A model generated the notes under the pieces. It had not been told where the DNA came from, did not search any database, and saw only the letters and a list, made by a program, of their open reading frames with translations. 64,000 nt of DNA. Source: a virus. Both the position numbers and the translations under genes were made by a program. Each line of letters begins with the position of its first letter. The stretch's first letter is position 1. Shown one piece after another: positions 2,035-60,316 of the stretch. The DNA is taken from the IMG/VR virus record IMGVR_UViG_3300036861_000610, positions 1 through 64,000 of that record; one strand, 5' to 3'.

Positions 2035-2316
2035 ATGATCAAAACCATCCTCGCATCAGCCGCCATCGCCGCGCTCGCCGCCACTGGCCCCACCAGCTGC
2101 AGCGACAAGCCCGGCCCCCACCGCCAGAACACGAGCACCCAGGACCTGGAGACGTTCGCCAAGTGCGACGACGACAATGGCCACGGGCCCGTGCATCCGT
2201 GTACGACCCGCGACGAGGACGGTAAGTGGATCGTGCACTTGCAGGGCGACAACGACTGCCCGTTCTACACCGTCCAGCCCAAGGATCAGGTCAAGTGCGT
2301 GAACGTGGTCAGGTAG
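2035..2316 (+). CDS. Secreted or lipoprotein hypothetical
   Basis: SD AAGGAG; hydrophobic N-terminus followed by TSC. Confidence 0.7.
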   Translation: MIKTILASAAIAALAATGPTSCSDKPGPHRQNTSTQDLETFAKCDDDNGHGPVHPCTTRDEDGKWIVHLQGDNDCPFYTVQPKDQVKCVNVVR

Positions 2317-2483
2317 GTGCCTGACAAGCCGCACCCGGTGGATCCAGCTTCACCACGCAACCCGCTGGGACGACCGCGGCCGATACACAGCCCGCCACAC
2401 CCAGTAGACCCCAAGCCTCCGAAGAAGTAATCCTCCGGGGCGGTGCCATCAGCACCGCCCCGGACCGCCCCCAGGAGAAACTC

Positions 2484-2810
2484 ATGCCATCCCCCACTCG
2501 CGACGCCCCAGCGTTCATCACCCAGAACACCAGCCGCAAAGTCACCTACACCCGCACCGTTGACACCACCGGCCGGGCCGCCGAGGCCATGGCCAAGCGC
2601 GGCGACATGGACCTTGTGCAGGTCCCCCACACCTTCGAGGTGGAACGCGTCGCCGGCCCCCGCGACACCAACGCCCGCTTCCGCTTCCTGGTCCCAGGCC
2701 AGATGCTCGTCGTTGCCGAAGACGACCTGCCCATCATCGAGGCGCTCATCATCGCCATGAACGCCGAGCGGCAGGCCACCGAAGAAGGCGACGGAGGTGT
2801 GGCTTCATGA
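2484..2810 (+). CDS. Hypothetical protein
   Basis: SD AGGAG; coupled to next ORF. Confidence 0.7.
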   Translation: MPSPTRDAPAFITQNTSRKVTYTRTVDTTGRAAEAMAKRGDMDLVQVPHTFEVERVAGPRDTNARFRFLVPGQMLVVAEDDLPIIEALIIAMNAERQATEEGDGGVAS

Positions 2811-3220
2811 TCAGCCTGATCAAGGCCGCCGTAGCACGGGTCAAGAAGAATTCTGGCTTTAATCTCACGGAAGCCCTTAAGCTTCCTGTCGAGGACCTCG
2901 CCTATGTCGTACTTCTCGACGCGAAGCGCAGGCACGCCCAGCTGGTTTTCAGCTTCCTTATCATGGGCAGTGGCCTTCTGACGCTGGTGTTTGATCTTAT
3001 CGGTCCCGCAGTCCTTGCTACTGCCGGTTGCTACCTCATCGCGGGCCTTTTCCTCCTCGATGTCATCGTCGTTTGGCTGAACCTGCGCCGGGGGCGCCGC
3101 TTCGTGCGGAAAGCTATCGAACGCAATAAGAGGCGCCAGACCATCGAGTATGACAAGGAGCAGAAGGCTGAGGCGTGGACCGCAGAGTTGATGTCGAGAT
3201 GGAACAGGACGCAGCCGTGA
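2807..3220 (+). CDS. Membrane protein
   Basis: Two hydrophobic helices; SD GGAGG; ATGA overlap. Confidence 0.7.
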   Translation: MISLIKAAVARVKKNSGFNLTEALKLPVEDLAYVVLLDAKRRHAQLVFSFLIMGSGLLTLVFDLIGPAVLATAGCYLIAGLFLLDVIVVWLNLRRGRRFVRKAIERNKRRQTIEYDKEQKAEAWTAELMSRWNRTQP

Positions 3221-4032
3221 GCAACGACAAAAACCAAAGAGAGACAGCATCCCCCGTGACAACTGAAGACTTCAGATCCGTCAGCGAAACTACCGAGGTT
3301 GTCAACGCAGAACCTATCGATGCGCCCGAGGTGGCAGGGCCGCCGGTCGACGACGTCATCACCATCGACCGGAAAATCGGCGCCACCCGCGCTGCTGTCA
3401 CCCTCACCTCCGGCCTCACCGTCACTGGGGCCTGGGCAGCCGGCGACTCCCAAGCCCTGCGGCGCCTCATCGAAAGCCTCATCGAAGTAACCGACGGCGC
3501 CACCGCCCGCGTCGACCGCGGAGTCAGGCGCATCGCCGACCTGGAAGATGCGCTGCGCGCAGTCCGAACCCAGCTCCGGGTCGCCCTCGACGAGGTTCAC
3601 GACCTGCATACCGAACGGGAAGTTATTCGACACGACCTTGGTCACCAGCTGGCTGAACAGCTGGGCGAAATCACCACCCTTCGCGCCGAGATCGACGGCG
3701 CCCGCGCCATAGCCATGCTGTCCCCCGACAAGGCGGAGCTGGTACGTGAACGGGACCAGCTCCGCAGCGCCCTTGCTACCGAGAAGCGTCGCGCCGATAC
3801 AGCTGTGGCCGCCTACCGGGAGCTGGAGGAACGGACCTCGGTTGACATGGCCATCGCTGAAGCTGATCGTGCCTACAACCTGAGGCGACAGGCTCTCGCC
3901 GCCGTGGAAACAGCCGAGGAAGCATTTGAGGACAAGTTGTGGAAGAAAGGCGGACGGTACCTGAGGCTCGCGAACACGTGGATCGCCTTGCTCAACGCCG
4001 GCAGCGAGCCGCTGGAGGCACCACCGGAATGA
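3217..4032 (+). CDS. Coiled-coil hypothetical protein
   Basis: GTGA overlap; heptad-rich C-terminal half. Confidence 0.7.
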   Translation: MSNDKNQRETASPVTTEDFRSVSETTEVVNAEPIDAPEVAGPPVDDVITIDRKIGATRAAVTLTSGLTVTGAWAAGDSQALRRLIESLIEVTDGATARVDRGVRRIADLEDALRAVRTQLRVALDEVHDLHTEREVIRHDLGHQLAEQLGEITTLRAEIDGARAIAMLSPDKAELVRERDQLRSALATEKRRADTAVAAYRELEERTSVDMAIAEADRAYNLRRQALAAVETAEEAFEDKLWKKGGRYLRLANTWIALLNAGSEPLEAPPE

Positions 4033-4694
4033 ATACCCGGGTTGTTGGACGGGTAACTCAACCAGCTCCCCAGGTCTGGATATACGACAAGCAGACAAAA
4101 AGTTGGATGGAGCCGGAGGCGGTTACCACACCCCCACTGGAGCAGATTGGAGAAGCCTTGAAGGCGATAGACCGAGAGCAGGCAGGTCTGGTGCAGGCCA
4201 TGCGGCTGGCGCGCGCTCGCGGCTTTTCCTGGGCGAAGATCGGAGTCATCCTGGGCGTCAGCCGCCAGGCCGCTCAGCAGCGTTTCGGGTTCGTAGACGA
4301 TGAGCTGCGCCGCCAAGGCAAGGAGGTGGTCGATGAACCAGAACCGGCCGTTGAGGCAACTTCCACGCCGCAGCCGCAGCCGCCTAAACCGGTCCACGCA
4401 GTAGCGCCCGAACCTCAATTCGACTTCTCGGCGATGGCCGGTATGACTGATGACGAGATTATCGCCATGGCTAAGAACCTGCCGATCGAGGCGAAGCTCT
4501 ATGACCCTTACCTCAGGGCACTGCGGGAAGCTATCGTCGTGACACTGCACAAACGCGGCATGGGCCAGGCGAAGATCGCGGCGATCATCCACAAATCTGC
4601 GCAGCGCGTGTCACAGATCATTGGTGACTACTACACCCGCAAGGAGCGGGAGTGGCAGGAGGAACGCGCTCGGTGGGGACAGGAGGGGGCGTAA
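4029..4694 (+). CDS. DNA-binding protein with two HTH motifs
   Basis: SWAKIGVILGVSRQAAQQRF and GQAKIAAIIHKSAQRVSQII. Confidence 0.75.
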   Translation: MNTRVVGRVTQPAPQVWIYDKQTKSWMEPEAVTTPPLEQIGEALKAIDREQAGLVQAMRLARARGFSWAKIGVILGVSRQAAQQRFGFVDDELRRQGKEVVDEPEPAVEATSTPQPQPPKPVHAVAPEPQFDFSAMAGMTDDEIIAMAKNLPIEAKLYDPYLRALREAIVVTLHKRGMGQAKIAAIIHKSAQRVSQIIGDYYTRKEREWQEERARWGQEGA

Positions 4695-9556: not shown

Positions 9557-9820
9557 ATGCCAACGAGCGTTTTCCGTCAGGGGAGGTGGCTGGATGTTTT
9601 CGTACCTCGCGGCGATGGACTTATCCCTGTTTGGCTTCGAAGAGGTGACGAGAAGATCCTCCTCTGCCAAATCCAGAACACTGGTCGGTTCGGCTGGACC
9701 GTTGTCGTGTCGGGGGACGTTCGGGGCGTTCGATTGGTCAACGGATTCAAACAGCGATGGCAGGCGATCCGGTACGCCATTGACATCAGGCTTGACCTGG
9801 GACATGAAAGGTCTGATTAG
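9557..9820 (+). CDS. Hypothetical protein
   Basis: In operon order; TAGTG overlap with next gene. Confidence 0.6.
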   Translation: MPTSVFRQGRWLDVFVPRGDGLIPVWLRRGDEKILLCQIQNTGRFGWTVVVSGDVRGVRLVNGFKQRWQAIRYAIDIRLDLGHERSD

Positions 9821-10248
9821 TGACTGAGTACTGGATCTGGAACAACACCGAAGGCGGCTGGTGGGACAAACATGGCAGCGGCTACACCCGCAAGCTACAC
9901 GAGGCCGGCCGTTTTGCTGAGCAGGTCGCCCGGGAGCGGCTCCAGGGCACCAACATGGCCGTCGCGCCCACCGACCACCCAGACGAGGTGATGATCCCAG
10001 TCAACAACACCTTCCTGCCGGCCGAGGCGCAGCGCATCCTGGCCGAGTACGAGGCAACCGGCGACCATACGGTCATCGACAACGCCTACTTCGCCGCCCA
10101 AAATAAGGCGCTCGTCGCCAGTGACGCCTTTCAGGAGTCTTGGGGCCAGTTCCTTCGCGGCGAAGGCCAAGAAATTGACCAGGATATCGACTTCCCGGAA
10201 ATCCGGGAGGAATCCACTGGAGAAGGAGAAACGCATGGACATCGGTAA
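9820..10248 (+). CDS. Hypothetical protein
   Basis: WIW...WW....GYT..L.EAGRF motif, common in phage proteins. Confidence 0.7.
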   Translation: MTEYWIWNNTEGGWWDKHGSGYTRKLHEAGRFAEQVARERLQGTNMAVAPTDHPDEVMIPVNNTFLPAEAQRILAEYEATGDHTVIDNAYFAAQNKALVASDAFQESWGQFLRGEGQEIDQDIDFPEIREESTGEGETHGHR

Positions 10249-41023: not shown

Positions 41024-41542
41024 TCAGGGACTGGGTGCGCACCAACCGTTGCCACGATTTGGTTGCTCGGTCAAGAAATTCTCGCCAGCCTCAAATGCGG
41101 CCAGCACGTCCTCGACCGGTTCGTCTTCTACGAAGAAGTCGTCATCGTCCATGACTTCGCGAAGCGGCCGGCGCCGCCCGTTGACAGCATTCTCCAGCGC
41201 CTTTTTCAGGGCGGCAACCTGCTTTGGATCCGCGTTGATTTCGTCTGTAATCCGTTGACCTTCTCCTCGGCGTAGCTCCTCCAGCTCTTCCTCGCTGTAG
41301 GTCACAGCTTCCGCAGGATTGGCCACGGAAGCCAGCTCCTTCGCCCGCGCCAACAGCGCCTCATCATCCTCGATCAGCGCCAAGCGCTGCAAAATCTCCT
41401 GGCTGTCGGCGATGACGCGTTCGGCCACCTCCCGGAACTTCTCGGCCCGCAGTTCCTCGGCATACGCCGACAGCTTCTCGATACGCGCCTGCGCCGCCTC
41501 AGTGCCGACGAAGGTGGGTTCGACTACAGGTTCTTCAGCCAT
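41024..41542 (-). CDS. Acidic helical hypothetical protein
   Basis: ORF in operon; Glu-rich. Confidence 0.65.
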   Translation of the reverse strand: MAEEPVVEPTFVGTEAAQARIEKLSAYAEELRAEKFREVAERVIADSQEILQRLALIEDDEALLARAKELASVANPAEAVTYSEEELEELRRGEGQRITDEINADPKQVAALKKALENAVNGRRRPLREVMDDDDFFVEDEPVEDVLAAFEAGENFLTEQPNRGNGWCAPSP

Positions 41543-42600
41543 GAGCTGATGATGCCGTACGACGCCCCAGCCGTTGGGTGCAATGCCAGATCGTGACCCG
41601 AGGTCGCCACCGTATACACCTTGAAGCTCTTAGCGTGAGCGTAGAACGGAGCCTCGTTTGCCGTCACAGCAGCACCGTCGGCACAGTTGAACACAGCCGG
41701 CTGGTAGCAGAAGATCGCGTCCTCCTGGCCGTTCACTACAAGCACCGGCACAGTGATCTGGTTCGAGATGTTGTCCCCGACCGCCACGTTACGGTCAGCC
41801 AGGAAGCTCAGCAGGCCCGTCAACGACACCAGGTCCTTGTTCTTCTCGTCGAGTGCGATCAGGGCAGGATCCGAGCTAGGGGAGTGGAAACCAGAAGCCC
41901 GCGCCCCAACCCGAGTGGTCAACCACCCGTTGTCCAGTGGCGGGTTCAGGTCCTTGAACTTGTCGTCCTGGTTTGCTGGGTAGTTGCCGGCAGTGACGGC
42001 CGGGTTCGAGGGCCGGTGCAGGTAGCCGGTGAGGATTACCGTGCTGACGTCGGCATACTTCTTCGCCTCGGCCAGGACCACGCCTGAGCCGTAAGAGTGT
42101 CCAACAGAGTTGACCTTCTGGTAGCCCAACGCCCGCACGCCAGACACCAGCTGGTGCAGCACAGCTGCGTCGGAGGCCATGGTGATCTCGGCGCTGGCCA
42201 ACGTGTCGTCAATCGGGTTGGTGCTGGTGCCGTTGCCGACCCGGTCGTAGGCTACCGTGGCACGGCCGTCGGCCAGTGCCCGACCTACGTAGGAGTACAG
42301 GGCCCCGCCGTCAGGCCAGTCCCAGTACGAACGGGTGTAGGTCGAGCCGGCGGTCAGAACATCCACCTCACGGGTCCACCGGAACGGGACGCAGAGGGTG
42401 ACACCCACCTCCCAGGACCGCGGTGCACCATCCGCGGGTGCTACAGGCGCGCCCAGCTTGATGCAGGCGCCCTTGCGTGAGGGATGGGTGTAGAAGGCGA
42501 AGTCGCGGCCCATCGGATGATGGGCCTGGGCAGCAGTAGGTACCAGAACGGCGGCGGCCACGGCCGCCAGCGCTGCCAGTACTGCGAACGTTTTTCTCAC
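41524..42600 (-). CDS. Secreted alpha/beta hydrolase
   Basis: Signal peptide ending AQA; nucleophile GHSYG; VNGQED; GHDL. Confidence 0.85.
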   Translation of the reverse strand: MRKTFAVLAALAAVAAAVLVPTAAQAHHPMGRDFAFYTHPSRKGACIKLGAPVAPADGAPRSWEVGVTLCVPFRWTREVDVLTAGSTYTRSYWDWPDGGALYSYVGRALADGRATVAYDRVGNGTSTNPIDDTLASAEITMASDAAVLHQLVSGVRALGYQKVNSVGHSYGSGVVLAEAKKYADVSTVILTGYLHRPSNPAVTAGNYPANQDDKFKDLNPPLDNGWLTTRVGARASGFHSPSSDPALIALDEKNKDLVSLTGLLSFLADRNVAVGDNISNQITVPVLVVNGQEDAIFCYQPAVFNCADGAAVTANEAPFYAHAKSFKVYTVATSGHDLALHPTAGASYGIISSWLKNL

Positions 42601-42907: not shown

Positions 42908-42908
42908 G

Positions 42909-42984
42909 AGCCGCAGGGGGGAGTCGAACCCCAAGTTTTACAGGTTTTGCAGACCTGCCGCTGCGCCGGCAACGACCCCACGGC
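42909..42984 (-). tRNA. tRNA-Cys(GCA), atypical Sec-like fold
   Basis: Loop CT-GCA-AA; U73; 6-bp D stem with 4-nt loop; 6-bp anticodon stem; possible 8/4 acceptor/T. Confidence 0.75.
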
Positions 42985-43004: not shown

Positions 43005-43175
43005 TCAGATCGCTGACTGGAAGCCAGCAACAATGCCTGACGAATCATCATCGTTTTTAGCTACTCGCTTCATGATCGAAGCAAGCACCGGATTGATGTC
43101 CCCCAGAAACTCGATCAGGTTCAGGTCGGTCAAATCTGGTAGGGCGTCTGCGTCAACGCCACCATCGGTGCTCAC
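43005..43175 (-). CDS. FxSxx-COOH RiPP precursor-like peptide (FxsA type), orphan
   Basis: LPDLTDLNL..L....PVLA..MKRV...VAGFQSAI-stop; SD AAAGGA. Confidence 0.75.
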   Translation of the reverse strand: MSTDGGVDADALPDLTDLNLIEFLGDINPVLASIMKRVAKNDDDSSGIVAGFQSAI

Positions 43176-43228
43176 CGTCGCTGCCTTTCCTTTATTCAAT
43201 GTGTACCCATTCGCTTAATAATGGAGTG

Positions 43229-43300
43229 TACCCCTGGGGAGAATCGAACTCCCGCCCCGGCCTCCGGAGGACCATGCTCTATCCACTGAGCTACAGGGGT
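43229..43300 (-). tRNA. tRNA-Arg(CCG)
   Basis: Loop CT-CCG-GA. Confidence 0.9.
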
Positions 43301-43340: not shown

Positions 43341-43937
43341 ATGCCAAATCATCGTTCCTACACCGATGAACAACTTGAGATGGCCATTGCCTCCGCGGTC
43401 TGTTGGTCAGACGTTATGGAGTATCTGGGAAAATCCCGATCGGCAAACCCAAGGTTCGTAAAAGAGGTCGCGGCTCGACTGAAGCTCGACACGGCCCATT
43501 TCCGGAATCCGGCCCAAGTCTTCAGAACCTCGGCCTTTCCGCCTTCGTCGGAGGTGGCCAAGGGTCATGCCGGTTTAGGTGTGGCGATTGCCTGGTTCAT
43601 GAGCCGGGGGTACATGGTTCTTTTACCGATAGAGCAATCACCCTACGACCTGGTAATCGATACTGTCGATGGGTTCAAAAAGATTCAGGTGAAATCGAGC
43701 CAGAGGTCGGTTGAACCCCGACAGCGACGTGCAGTTAGATTGACCCGAAGGCTGTATGACTCTTCGGTGCCCGCAAACGCAAATGGAACTTATCGAATGG
43801 TTCAATACAAGGCCCATGAGGTTGACTACTTCTTCATCATCGTGGGCGATGGCCGCACCTATCTCATACCCTTTGAAGCTGTTCGCGACAAGTCTTCGAT
43901 CGTGCCCGAAGACAAGTATCAAGACTTTATGGTTTAG
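43341..43937 (+). CDS. PD-(D/E)xK endonuclease (probable homing endonuclease)
   Basis: YTDEQL..AI N-domain; PYDLVI...KIQVKS...EVDYF; antisense within the tRNA array. Confidence 0.8.
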   Translation: MPNHRSYTDEQLEMAIASAVCWSDVMEYLGKSRSANPRFVKEVAARLKLDTAHFRNPAQVFRTSAFPPSSEVAKGHAGLGVAIAWFMSRGYMVLLPIEQSPYDLVIDTVDGFKKIQVKSSQRSVEPRQRRAVRLTRRLYDSSVPANANGTYRMVQYKAHEVDYFFIIVGDGRTYLIPFEAVRDKSSIVPEDKYQDFMV

Positions 43938-47116: not shown

Positions 47117-47119
47117 TTG

Positions 47120-47193
47120 TGCCCCGTACGGAATTCGAACCCGCGCTCACAGGGCTTTAGAGGCCCCGGCTCTGACCGCTGAGCTAACGAGAC
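47120..47193 (-). tRNA. Amber suppressor tRNA (CTA)
   Basis: Canonical cloverleaf; GGGGC-CT-CTA-AA-GCCCT. Confidence 0.85.
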
Positions 47194-50822: not shown

Positions 50823-50835
50823 ATTGCTCCTTGCG

Positions 50836-50911
50836 TGGATCCGACGGGATTCGAACCCGTACCTCTGCAAACCGTTAGCTGCTTATGCTCTCGCCATTAA
50901 GCTACGGACCC
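50836..50911 (-). ncRNA. Ala-acceptor tRNA-like RNA with aberrant anticodon arm
   Basis: GGGTCCG/CGGATCC-A (G3:U70); normal D and T arms; 8-nt loop. Confidence 0.65.
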
Positions 50912-54465: not shown

Positions 54466-55488
54466 CTAGATCAGGTACAGGTACCGGGTGCCGGCGATCA
54501 GCTTCCGGTTGATCGACGTCGACTGGACGTAGATGTCGAAGTCGGGGTTGTGGTTCGGGCTCACCCGCACGTTCATGTCGGGCAGACCCACCATCTGACG
54601 CGCGTCCCGGCCGCTGTACACCTTGTGGTCCTTCTTGCCGACCACCATGATGTCCTTCGTCGCCTGGATTTCTTCACGCTTCATCAGCTGGTAGAACCCG
54701 CGGCCGGCCTGGTAGTTGTGGCCGCACGCCTTGGTGAACTCGTCGATGCGCGAGTCAGTTGGCACTGGCACCAGGACATAGGTGCCTTTTGCCATCGGCG
54801 TGAGGCCGGCCTGGGCGATGGTCTGGACGTTTACTGCGTCGGCGCCGGTGGAGAACAGGTTCCGGGTGGACCGGACGCCGGCTCGACGGGCCTGCATGTA
54901 GTTCTCGGTGGCGTCTCGGACGCGGTCTCCAGCTTCCCCGACGCCAGCTGCCGAGTTGGGGTTCCAGATCTCGATGTTGCCGGCGGAGAAGCCGAACTGT
55001 TTGGCCTCACGCATGCCCATGGCGTTGGGCACCAGTGCCGCAACGGTCCAATGGTCTTTGAGGCCGGCGAGACGCGCCTTGAGGGTGGCCGGTCGGTTAA
55101 CGCTGCGGTTTTCTTCGCCGTCGGTCAGGACGAAGACCAGGAACGAGTGGTCGCCGTAGCGTTCTGGGGTCTCCCCCAGGTGGTCCAGGGCCTGCAGTGT
55201 GGCGTCGATGAACGCGGTGTTGCCAAACGGTGTGTAGAAGCTGCTGATGCTCGGCAGCCGCAGCACATCCTTGTCCCAGACGACGCATTCGATGCGGTTG
55301 GGGTCGGCGAATGTCCACACCGAGATCCGGGTCTCCTGGTCCAATTCCTTGGACCGTCGGGCCAGGTGTTCAATCTGGCCGTCGGCGACTTTGATCAGGT
55401 CCTTTTTGTGCGGCGTCATCGAGGTCGATGCGTCTAGCACGAAGGCGATGTGGTTGATGATGTTGGCAATTGGTGCTGTCGCTGGCAT
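54466..55488 (-). CDS. von Willebrand factor A domain protein
   Basis: MIDAS DASTSM; T; LTDGEEN. Confidence 0.85.
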   Translation of the reverse strand: MPATAPIANIINHIAFVLDASTSMTPHKKDLIKVADGQIEHLARRSKELDQETRISVWTFADPNRIECVVWDKDVLRLPSISSFYTPFGNTAFIDATLQALDHLGETPERYGDHSFLVFVLTDGEENRSVNRPATLKARLAGLKDHWTVAALVPNAMGMREAKQFGFSAGNIEIWNPNSAAGVGEAGDRVRDATENYMQARRAGVRSTRNLFSTGADAVNVQTIAQAGLTPMAKGTYVLVPVPTDSRIDEFTKACGHNYQAGRGFYQLMKREEIQATKDIMVVGKKDHKVYSGRDARQMVGLPDMNVRVSPNHNPDFDIYVQSTSINRKLIAGTRYLYLI

Positions 55489-58705: not shown

Positions 58706-60316
58706 CTAGCTCGCGGTCTCCCACGGCCAGGACGCCTTCTGCCCCGCCTCGATCAACGGAACCATGCTGAACGTGTGGTCTGTTAGGCCACCCAGCTGGT
58801 GCCGAGTTGACGTGGTGTCCAACATGGCCGGCGCGTAGCCTGCCAGGTTGAAGCTGTAGACCGACGTCTCAGCCGGAACCTGAGCCCCGACATCTCCCTG
58901 CCAGTACCCACGACCCGGCCCGAAGGTCTGCTCGTCGGTCATGATGAAGACGCGGTTGTGGCCCTGGAATGTCGCCTTCAAGGCCGCCGCGGTGTGAGTG
59001 CCACCGCCGCGCACCTTGCGCTTGAACGCCTCGATGTCGCGCAGGATGCTGCCACCCTTGCTGATCTCGAACTTCCAGGGGGTGTTGTCGAAGCCGTAGA
59101 CGTCGACCTTCTCACCCTTGTGCGCCAGTGCCAGTCCAAACAAGGCGGCCTGGTCCACCACCTCGACCTGCGACTTGCCCGACATCCGACCCTTCATCGA
59201 CCCTGACGTGTCGATCAGGATCAGAGTCCGACCTGGTAGCGGCGGGATGTTCGCCGTCGAATACTGCAACGCCAGCTCCAGCGCCGACACCCACTGGGCA
59301 CCGGTTGCGGTGGCGTACGCCGACAGGAACCGGAACGGCAGCTGCCTTGACCGGGCAACCTCGTCAGGGTCGGCCAGACGCTCGTTCACCTGCTTGACAG
59401 CCGCGGCGGAGATCCCCGCCTCCTGGAAGTTGCGCAGGTTGCGCAGCAAAGCCATGTAGCCCATAACTGGGATCAAGGACTCCCACACTTCAGCTGTCAT
59501 CGCACCCCAGGACGAGGCCTGCTCCCAGGTGATGCCGGCATCCCGCAGGATTTCCTCGGAGTCGTCGCCGAGCATCAGGTCACGCTTCGCCTTGTCTGGC
59601 AGGGCCAGGATGGTGGCGCGCTTGTCCAGCACCGCCAGCTGCTGCGAGATCGGCGTCTTCGGGTCCCGACGTACGTCCAGGATGTACTTGAACAGCGCTG
59701 ACTGGGTCAAGCTGGCCGGCTCCGGGTGGGTCAGCTCGATGACATCGGCCATCCGAACCGCCTTGTCCCCGCCGTTCCACTTGATGTACGCGAACTGGTT
59801 GTACTTCGCAGTCGCACCGTCGCCGATTCCACGACGAATACCGGCCGGCAGCTGGCGCCCGTAGGTCGCCAGCCAGTAAGCCAACGCCTCAGCTGGCTCA
59901 TCGGGACGGCCGACCCAGAAGAAACTGCGGAGCAGCTGCCGCGAGTCACCAACCCGAGAACCGGGCTGGTCAGCCTTGAGCATTATCTTGGCAGCTTCGA
60001 CGGCCGCGACGACGGCCGCGGTGCGGATGTTGGCCTTGTCGCGGAGCCAGACGATGAACTCCTTGATCCATGCAGGGTCCTCGGCGGCGACGGTGCGGAC
60101 TAGAGCGGCGAAGCGCTGGTTCCGGTCGCTGGCCTTCTCGTAGAAGGTGTCCTCGCCGTAGAAGTTGGAGACAGCCAGGAGGAAGAGTTCCGACTTGGTC
60201 TCGCGGGTGTAGGCCGGCGCGCCCTCGAACGTCTTGGTGTCCTTGGCCGCAGCACGCAGTGGCGAGCCCGCATTCGGGGTGGCCGTCCTGGTGCCTCGCT
60301 TGTTGGTGGTGGCCAT
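58706..60316 (-). CDS. rsr: Ro60/Rsr (TROVE + vWA) Y-RNA-binding protein
   Basis: ELFLLAV..F..EDTFYE; RPDEP; YMALLRNLRNF; SRQLPFRFLSAY; vWA DTSGSM, GGT, TDEQ. Confidence 0.93.
   Translation of the reverse strand: MATTNKRGTRTATPNAGSPLRAAAKDTKTFEGAPAYTRETKSELFLLAVSNFYGEDTFYEKASDRNQRFAALVRTVAAEDPAWIKEFIVWLRDKANIRTAAVVAAVEAAKIMLKADQPGSRVGDSRQLLRSFFWVGRPDEPAEALAYWLATYGRQLPAGIRRGIGDGATAKYNQFAYIKWNGGDKAVRMADVIELTHPEPASLTQSALFKYILDVRRDPKTPISQQLAVLDKRATILALPDKAKRDLMLGDDSEEILRDAGITWEQASSWGAMTAEVWESLIPVMGYMALLRNLRNFQEAGISAAAVKQVNERLADPDEVARSRQLPFRFLSAYATATGAQWVSALELALQYSTANIPPLPGRTLILIDTSGSMKGRMSGKSQVEVVDQAALFGLALAHKGEKVDVYGFDNTPWKFEISKGGSILRDIEAFKRKVRGGGTHTAAALKATFQGHNRVFIMTDEQTFGPGRGYWQGDVGAQVPAETSVYSFNLAGYAPAMLDTTSTRHQLGGLTDHTFSMVPLIEAGQKASWPWETAS

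Follow-up and report, generated by a model that had tools for sequence, protein, structure and literature searches.

Why should a phage carry, within a tRNA array, a gene for a 56 aa peptide that ends like a bacterial FxsA (FxSxx-COOH) precursor, when no gene for the FxsB maturase was found in its genome? The question is raised by a locus in the window, the stretch of 64,000 nt analysed here, which forms the first 64 kb of a 147,889 bp IMG/VR virus record rated 100 % complete by CheckV. The fxs loci of bacteria have been recognised since 2011 and the chemistry of FxsB is known, the enzyme being a maker of cyclophanes (PMC10114670; for FxsA and FxsB, PMC7159879 and PMC10114670 cite Haft and Basu, 2011, and Nguyen et al., 2020). 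According to two studies from the Aravind group, which are computational and made without experiments, Fxs loci are predicted conflict or apoptosis (immune) systems, comprising peptide-processing systems with AP-ATPase/TPR proteins and TIR-ParA FxsC/FxsT systems, and for the FxsA peptide the role of a toxin, of an antiviral molecule or of an alarm signal is proposed (PMC7159879; bioRxiv 10.64898/2026.10.19.760177). An earlier note on this DNA had presented a role of Fxs loci in immunity as an implication of the phage gene; that role is a computational prediction already in print and so not a new implication. Phage-borne FxsA is a different matter, as we found no description of it in the literature, and a term search of both studies returned none.

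The peptide gene and its family

The 56 aa ORF ending in F-x-S-x-x, its Shine–Dalgarno sequence and the flanking tRNA-Arg and tRNA-Cys genes are all present as the earlier note had claimed (Table 1). The GTG start codon occupies positions 43175–43173 and the TGA stop codon positions 43007–43005 of the minus strand, and an alternative TTG start at 43199 would extend the product to 64 aa. The leader of the peptide is LPDLTD...INPVLASIMKRV, after which come an acidic patch, DDD-S, and then the core; the peptide terminates in GIVAGFQSAI, with F-Q-S-A-I, an instance of F-x-S-x-x, directly before the stop codon.

Table 1. Position and orientation of the fxsA-like gene, its signals and its neighbours in the window
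Feature	Position	Strand	Remarks
Orphan FxsA-like (FxSxx-COOH) precursor CDS	43005..43175	-	56 aa from GTG
Shine–Dalgarno-like GGAAAGG	43184..43190	-	8 nt 5' of the GTG start
tRNA-Arg(ccg)	43228..43300	-	Neighbour on the upstream side with respect to transcription; its orthologue in L013 is tRNA-Arg(ccg)
tRNA-Cys(gca)	42908..42984	-	Downstream neighbour, 20 nt past the stop codon
PD-(D/E)XK endonuclease (PF11645) gene	43341..43937	+	Adjoins the fxsA-like gene

Around 50 tRNA genes make up the array in which the gene lies, and the gene is co-oriented with them. The array is syntenic with that of a related phage, L013 (158 kb, 97 % complete), which has a peptide gene of its own, and at the equivalent place L013 shows AAGGGGAG followed by GTG, the same layout as in the window. 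The slots occupied by the two genes differ: in L013 the gene is found between tRNA(cta) and tRNA-Arg(tct), in the window between tRNA-Arg(ccg) and tRNA-Cys. An origin by simple duplication and insertion was considered and dropped, as the two tRNA-Arg(ccg) genes, at 43228 and 44464, did not arise by recent duplication. The adjoining PD-(D/E)XK endonuclease has a homologue (44 % identity, E-value 5e-61) at positions 3–605 of L009, an unrelated contig, where 0.5 kb separates it from the fxsA-like gene; none was found in the records of L013, L012 and L015. This endonuclease may be a homing or mobility partner of the fxsA-like gene, which would account for the differing tRNA slots. Among the tRNAs themselves, ARAGORN reports one, labelled Pyl, whose anticodon is CUA (amber-suppressor-like) and which the two related phages have in common. 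Four-base anticodons are reported as well, ctaa for a tRNA of the window and tcag for one of L013; these unusual genes lie at 47119–47193 and 50835–50911 of the window and at 9805–9877 and 668–742 of L013. Just downstream of the array, at 41524–42600 of the minus strand, is a gene for an alpha/beta hydrolase with a signal-like hydrophobic stretch at its N-terminus.

The peptide falls short of the curated FxSxx-COOH model TIGR04268, a profile of 44 positions with a cut-off of 28 bits, scoring 18.4 bits (E-value 0.002) over profile positions 16–44. Six sister copies from phage or mobile-element contexts exceed the cut-off and match over the full profile (P0005, 48.5 bits; P0070, 48.0; P0034, 47.5; P0025, 41.2; the L013 copy, 41.2; P0026, 38.6). 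From a search of 5.8 billion proteins came five metagenomic relatives, P0002–P0006, all carrying Pfam PF27839 (FxSxx-COOH), which share 56–60 % identity with the window peptide over 81 % of its length at E-values of 1.3e-9 to 2.5e-5; a profile built from ten relatives recovered 79 family members, almost all of which end in AGFQSA[IL], and matches the window copy with an E-value of 9e-21. The leader is likewise homologous, with D22, L28, P37 and V46 invariant in alignment A1, and the phage copies have in common a DNPVL leader and a DD-x-S-x-G-IV motif ahead of the core. Two top matches from phmmer, P0007 (a 4,728 aa repeat protein, with 34 stretches) and P0008 (also a repeat protein), aligned to the low-complexity N-terminus only and were discarded as spurious. 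The FxsA-type precursor proposed by the earlier note is thus upheld by homology, though not by the TIGR04268 score, and on its sequence the window peptide, though divergent, is a true member of the FxsA family, of the AGFQSAI subtype.

Short genes in high-GC regions rich in spurious ORFs call for caution, and the peptide could in principle come from an ORF that arose by chance in a spacer between tRNA genes, or the record could be bacterial DNA instead of that of a phage. The E-values against the five relatives and the ten-member profile, which span 1e-9 to 9e-21, show that the ORF is not a product of chance, and its Shine–Dalgarno and GTG layout is kept in L013. As for bacterial DNA, the completeness estimate speaks against it, as do the genes for a large terminase, a Prim-Pol/D5 primase and a Ro60/TROVE protein. 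We attach a negligible probability to this explanation, which is already refuted by the homology results. The record further encodes a DUF932 protein, and its terminase and primase have only distant relatives among cultured actinophages, at 31–41 % identity (Microbacterium, Gordonia and Arthrobacter phages). The sequencing runs that contain its DNA are soil metagenomes, with no RNA run among them. The fxsA-like gene is a stand-alone module of a 148 kb soil actinophage. Of separate note in this genome are the vWA domain of the phage-encoded Ro60/TROVE protein (window 58706–60316, minus strand), a second vWA protein at window 54466–55488 and, beyond the window in the structural region, a single 20 kb ORF of 6,683 aa (genome positions 67831–87882, plus strand).

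Orphan copies in phages and mobile elements

That the window holds no radical SAM gene, as the earlier note had stated, was confirmed by a search for PF04055, and the orphan status of the gene extends to the rest of the phage: neither FxsB (TIGR04269), nor a radical SAM domain (PF04055), nor the HExxH hydroxylase (TIGR04267) was found in the complete 147,889 bp genome. The phage thus has neither FxsB next to the peptide gene nor a complete fxs system. Searches by tblastn with the FxsB, FxsBH, FxsT, SIR2 and nSTAND proteins of a bacterial locus, L016, gave no match in this genome or in any phage locus, and PF04055 was not found in five other IMG/VR records (97, 80, 62, 42 and 23 % complete).

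Orphan copies in other phages, for which the earlier note had proposed a survey, do exist. Besides L013, fxsA-like genes without any Fxs partner were found on 57 kb records with a tape measure protein (L011/L012), on 27 kb records with a terminase, an Rnl1 ligase and PNKP (L002/L014), on a 45 kb record with RecT and a methylase (L015), on a 38 kb contig with an integrase, a holin and an amidase, on a record with Prim-Pol/D5 (L046), on one with the Thoeris inhibitor Tad3 (L006) and in four further contexts (L007, L009, L047 and L017). The phage marks of L017 are weak, amounting to one HerA-like match to an uncultured Caudoviricetes, and it was called phage-like because its neighbour genes are common to L002 and L006. 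Grouped by shared neighbour genes, the carriers represent six or more unrelated backbones of phages or mobile elements; one or more carriers are temperate, as an integrase indicates. When 13 loci were compared over 4 kb on either side, the peptide was the only gene family common to more than three of them. The 2.9 million contigs of IMG/VR include seven carriers in all; the cultured phages of INPHARED gave no tblastn match to the window peptide or to P0005 at the sensitivity of that search, nor did viral contigs scanned with alignment A6. As a separate observation, the T4-type Rnl1 RNA ligase and PNKP of L002, a tRNA repair pair, are encoded at 2246–4305, 2.4–4.5 kb upstream of its fxsA-like gene; the same phage has a Terminase_6 gene too.

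In a tree of the peptides, which is built on 48 columns with most forks unresolved and in which P0022 stands in for L013, all phage-context rows fall into one 67-row group (support 93/89), together with a bacterial clade of the type found on metagenome contig L036 that also has the DNPVL leader. Judged from these sequences, the window gene belongs to a clade of orphan fxsA genes whose members sit on several backbones, of phages or mobile elements, that are unrelated to one another. The core has been maintained throughout: over the last nine codons of 11 phage genes, pairwise codon differences number 205 synonymous versus 36 non-synonymous, and AGFQSAI is invariant despite the many synonymous changes. 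The core codons of the phage fxsA-like genes are therefore under purifying selection. This bears on the proposal that likeness to FxsA is a matter of ancestry only, the unmodified peptide acting on an unrelated target or being carried along as a neutral hitch-hiker with the endonuclease. The low TIGR04268 score of the window copy would suit such a history, as would a PD-(D/E)XK endonuclease that adjoins the gene in two different backbones and the different tRNA slot in L013. A neutral passenger would decay, however, whereas selection here has preserved exactly the core and leader residues that are relevant to FxsB, and has done so in many phage lineages; we consider this proposal quite improbable.

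Bacterial loci of the same core subtype and a model of the FxsB interface

Bacterial copies with the same core were identified at 18 loci in species genomes, from Nonomuraea, Streptosporangium, Dactylosporangium, Actinoplanes and one Micromonosporaceae MAG, as well as in Acrocarpospora (L016) and on the 444 kb metagenome contig L036. FxsB is encoded within ~5.5 kb of the peptide gene, in most cases within ~3 kb, in 15 of the 18 genome loci and in both L016 and L036. The make-up of these loci is FxsA-FxsB-FxsBH-FxsT-SIR2-nSTAND. Their FxsB proteins score 461–501 bits against TIGR04269 (cut-off 370) and their FxsT proteins, which are NB-ARC-TPR proteins, 923–1045 bits against the FxSxx_TPR model NF040586 (cut-off 300); FxsBH is a hydroxylase of the aKG-HExxH type (mod_HExxH), named a beta-hydroxylase and not a peptidase in NCBIfam; the SIR2 domain of the SIR2-like protein resembles that of ThsA; and an nSTAND1-TPR NTPase brings the number of STAND/TPR NTPases, with FxsT, to two. 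In standing beside FxsT, STAND NTPases and an NAD-directed effector domain, the bacterial relatives match the predicted Fxs immune loci. The TIR-like FxsC that the earlier note had expected in such loci does not apply to the AGFQSA[IL] core: no TIR (FxsC) gene is listed within 10 kb of these loci, and unlike in the described systems the effector-like gene is SIR2-like, accompanied by FxsT/nSTAND1 and the aKG-HExxH hydroxylase.

Other FxsB loci have other cores (FNSFI, FNSAL, FSSHL and FDSAL), so that it is one particular subtype that the phage copies mimic. FxsB homologues occur in eight of 401 sampled Actinomycetota genomes, all eight of 6–13 Mb. A second copy in a Nonomuraea genome, L020, which is not phage-like, lacks FxsT upstream, and the contig ends 0.6 kb away from it. 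An initial reading of the core as phage-specific, based on a scan of 185,579 species genomes for [IV]VAGFQSAI that returned 16 stretches, none of them confirmed, was withdrawn once bacterial copies with P/A-VAGFQSA[IL] had been found. Elsewhere, in genome G391, an FxsA variant with two tandem cores (GNFNSFI twice) adjoins an FxsB homologue (L038), and from its sequence looks like a multi-core precursor.

The window peptide thus resembles the FxsA/FxsB family (TIGR04268, TIGR04269, PF27839) in its homologous leader and F-x-S-x-x-COOH end, in a core, AGFQSAI, found unchanged in the copies of Acrocarpospora and other bacteria, and in its predicted docking to FxsB; it differs from bacterial FxsA in being phage-borne, within a tRNA array and in a genome without FxsB, FxsBH or FxsT. 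The docking prediction comes from a complex model of the window peptide with the FxsB of L036, which scored 0.74, the best of three controls reaching 0.01, against a mark that was attained by 58 of 80 solved complexes and by two of 110 mismatched pairs. At least 42 % of contacts are common to the runs, and the partner pLDDT is 50 or more. Confident contacts are predicted between leader residues 35–39, 41–43 and 46, which are conserved, and FxsB residues 260–283 and 399–409; in the core, A58 and S62 would contact the conserved FxsB residues 37, 133 and 201. The model supports binding of the phage leader by bacterial FxsB as an enzyme–substrate pair, with the FxsB taken from a stand-in organism. 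Structures of related radical SAM/SPASM–peptide complexes, SuiB and CteB, have been solved, and so passing the docking mark may reflect likeness only.

The modelled interface also bears on a sub-variant of counter-defence in which the phage peptide is purely a decoy, an unmodified precursor that jams FxsB/FxsBH or binds the TPR region of FxsT without ever yielding a functional product. The predicted interface is dominated by contacts of the leader, as such a decoy would have it, yet a leader-only decoy would not need an AGFQSAI core that is invariant in 11 phage genes. We therefore hold it to be unlikely.

What the phage may gain

Counter-defence by mimicry of FxsA is, in our view, the best reading of the locus, and we give it an even chance of being correct. 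The bacterial peptide is tied to FxsT, a SIR2-like NADase-type effector and an nSTAND1-TPR NTPase, which makes counter-defence the most likely pay-off. By this account the fxsA-like gene would be transcribed together with the tRNA genes of the array, and its translation would start from a Shine–Dalgarno sequence and GTG of its own; the conserved leader (D-N-P-V-L ... L-x-R-V motif) would then be recognised by host FxsB, the radical SAM/SPASM maturase responsible for the Phe-to-Ser cyclophane cross-link of the family, and probably by the host FxsBH hydroxylase too. The phage would thus supply, or compete with, the host's own FxsA, and its copy would stop the predicted abortive-infection module from firing, either by replacing, like an antitoxin, a host peptide that falls in supply during infection or by saturating the maturation or sensing step. 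The phage core being the same as that of the host, its product would be the authentic peptide, and a gain for the phage would be simplest if that peptide holds the effector in check, or if maturation or sensing becomes saturated with surplus precursor. If, on the other hand, bacterial FxsA is a toxin or an alarm signal, as in the published guesses, an identical phage peptide would harm the phage unless it acted as an antagonist or decoy. The scarcity of FxsB homologues among the sampled Actinomycetota (8 of 401 genomes) and the sub-threshold TIGR04268 score of the window copy tell against counter-defence.

More tentatively, and with considerable doubt on our part, FxsA may be a short-lived, negative-regulatory RiPP ligand of the FxsT, SIR2 and STAND proteins, which would be depleted by phage shut-off and so lead to NAD-directed suicide, phages responding by supplying a precursor of their own. 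FxsA would then be an antitoxin or 'all is well' signal, and the phage precursor would be made from a highly transcribed tRNA array and matured by host FxsB to the authentic ligand. If true, the Fxs module would be the first abortive-infection system guarded by a RiPP, and the fxsA-like gene the first of any phage to depend on a host RiPP maturase.

Host FxsB might also mature the peptide for a use other than the blocking of defence, such as a signal between infected cells, the timing of lysis and lysogeny, superinfection exclusion or the triggering of the Fxs effector in neighbouring competitors. Conservation of both leader and core is what an authentic product would lead one to expect, and the core is identical to bacterial AGFQSAI; moreover, one or more carriers are temperate, with an integrase, and a diffusible signal role has been proposed (bioRxiv 10.64898/2026.10.19.760177). 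Nevertheless, no conserved phage receptor or partner gene is found beside the peptide gene in the 13 loci, and the N-terminus, as read from the sequence, is acidic and has no hydrophobic export signal. No tyrosine integrase was found in the complete 147,889 bp genome of the window phage, which makes a lysogeny signal unlikely here. On balance such another use appears rather unlikely.

Phage genomes that repeatedly carry the peptide alone, with a selected leader and core and no enzyme, provide independent evolutionary evidence for the peptide as the control point of a conflict between phage and host. The 56 aa phage gene is also a simple reagent for asking if FxsB accepts it and if an fxs locus is turned on or off by it, and, if the preferred reading, counter-defence by mimicry, is confirmed, host-matured RiPP mimics would be an added class of phage counter-defence factor. 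Pseudo-ToxI of phage PhiTE and Dmd of T4 are phage mimics of host regulators of toxin–antitoxin or abortive-infection systems. By analogy, the proposed logic would be the same, with the phage providing its own version, or a mimic, of the host component by which a suicide effector is kept silent; the mimic here would differ in being a RiPP precursor in need of a host maturation enzyme, and there is no sequence relation. In Arbitrium (AimP/AimR), phage peptide signalling operates with a phage-encoded receptor. The window peptide is likewise short and phage-encoded, and TPR proteins could serve as peptide receptors, but these TPR proteins are the host's, and the phage gene is paired with no phage-encoded receptor, export signal or conserved neighbour. 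Tad1, Tad2 and Tad3 are small phage proteins directed against an NAD-based (SIR2/TIR) immune pathway, in which they act as signalling-nucleotide sponges or inhibitors. These Thoeris inhibitors belong to families unrelated to the window peptide and are not peptide precursors; a likeness of setting exists in the ThsA-like SIR2 domain of the bacterial fxs loci and in L006. In that single case, a 3.2 kb phage fragment, a Tad3 type I Thoeris inhibitor (PF25185, 108.5 bits) is encoded at positions 17–376, 2.7 kb upstream of the fxsA-like gene.
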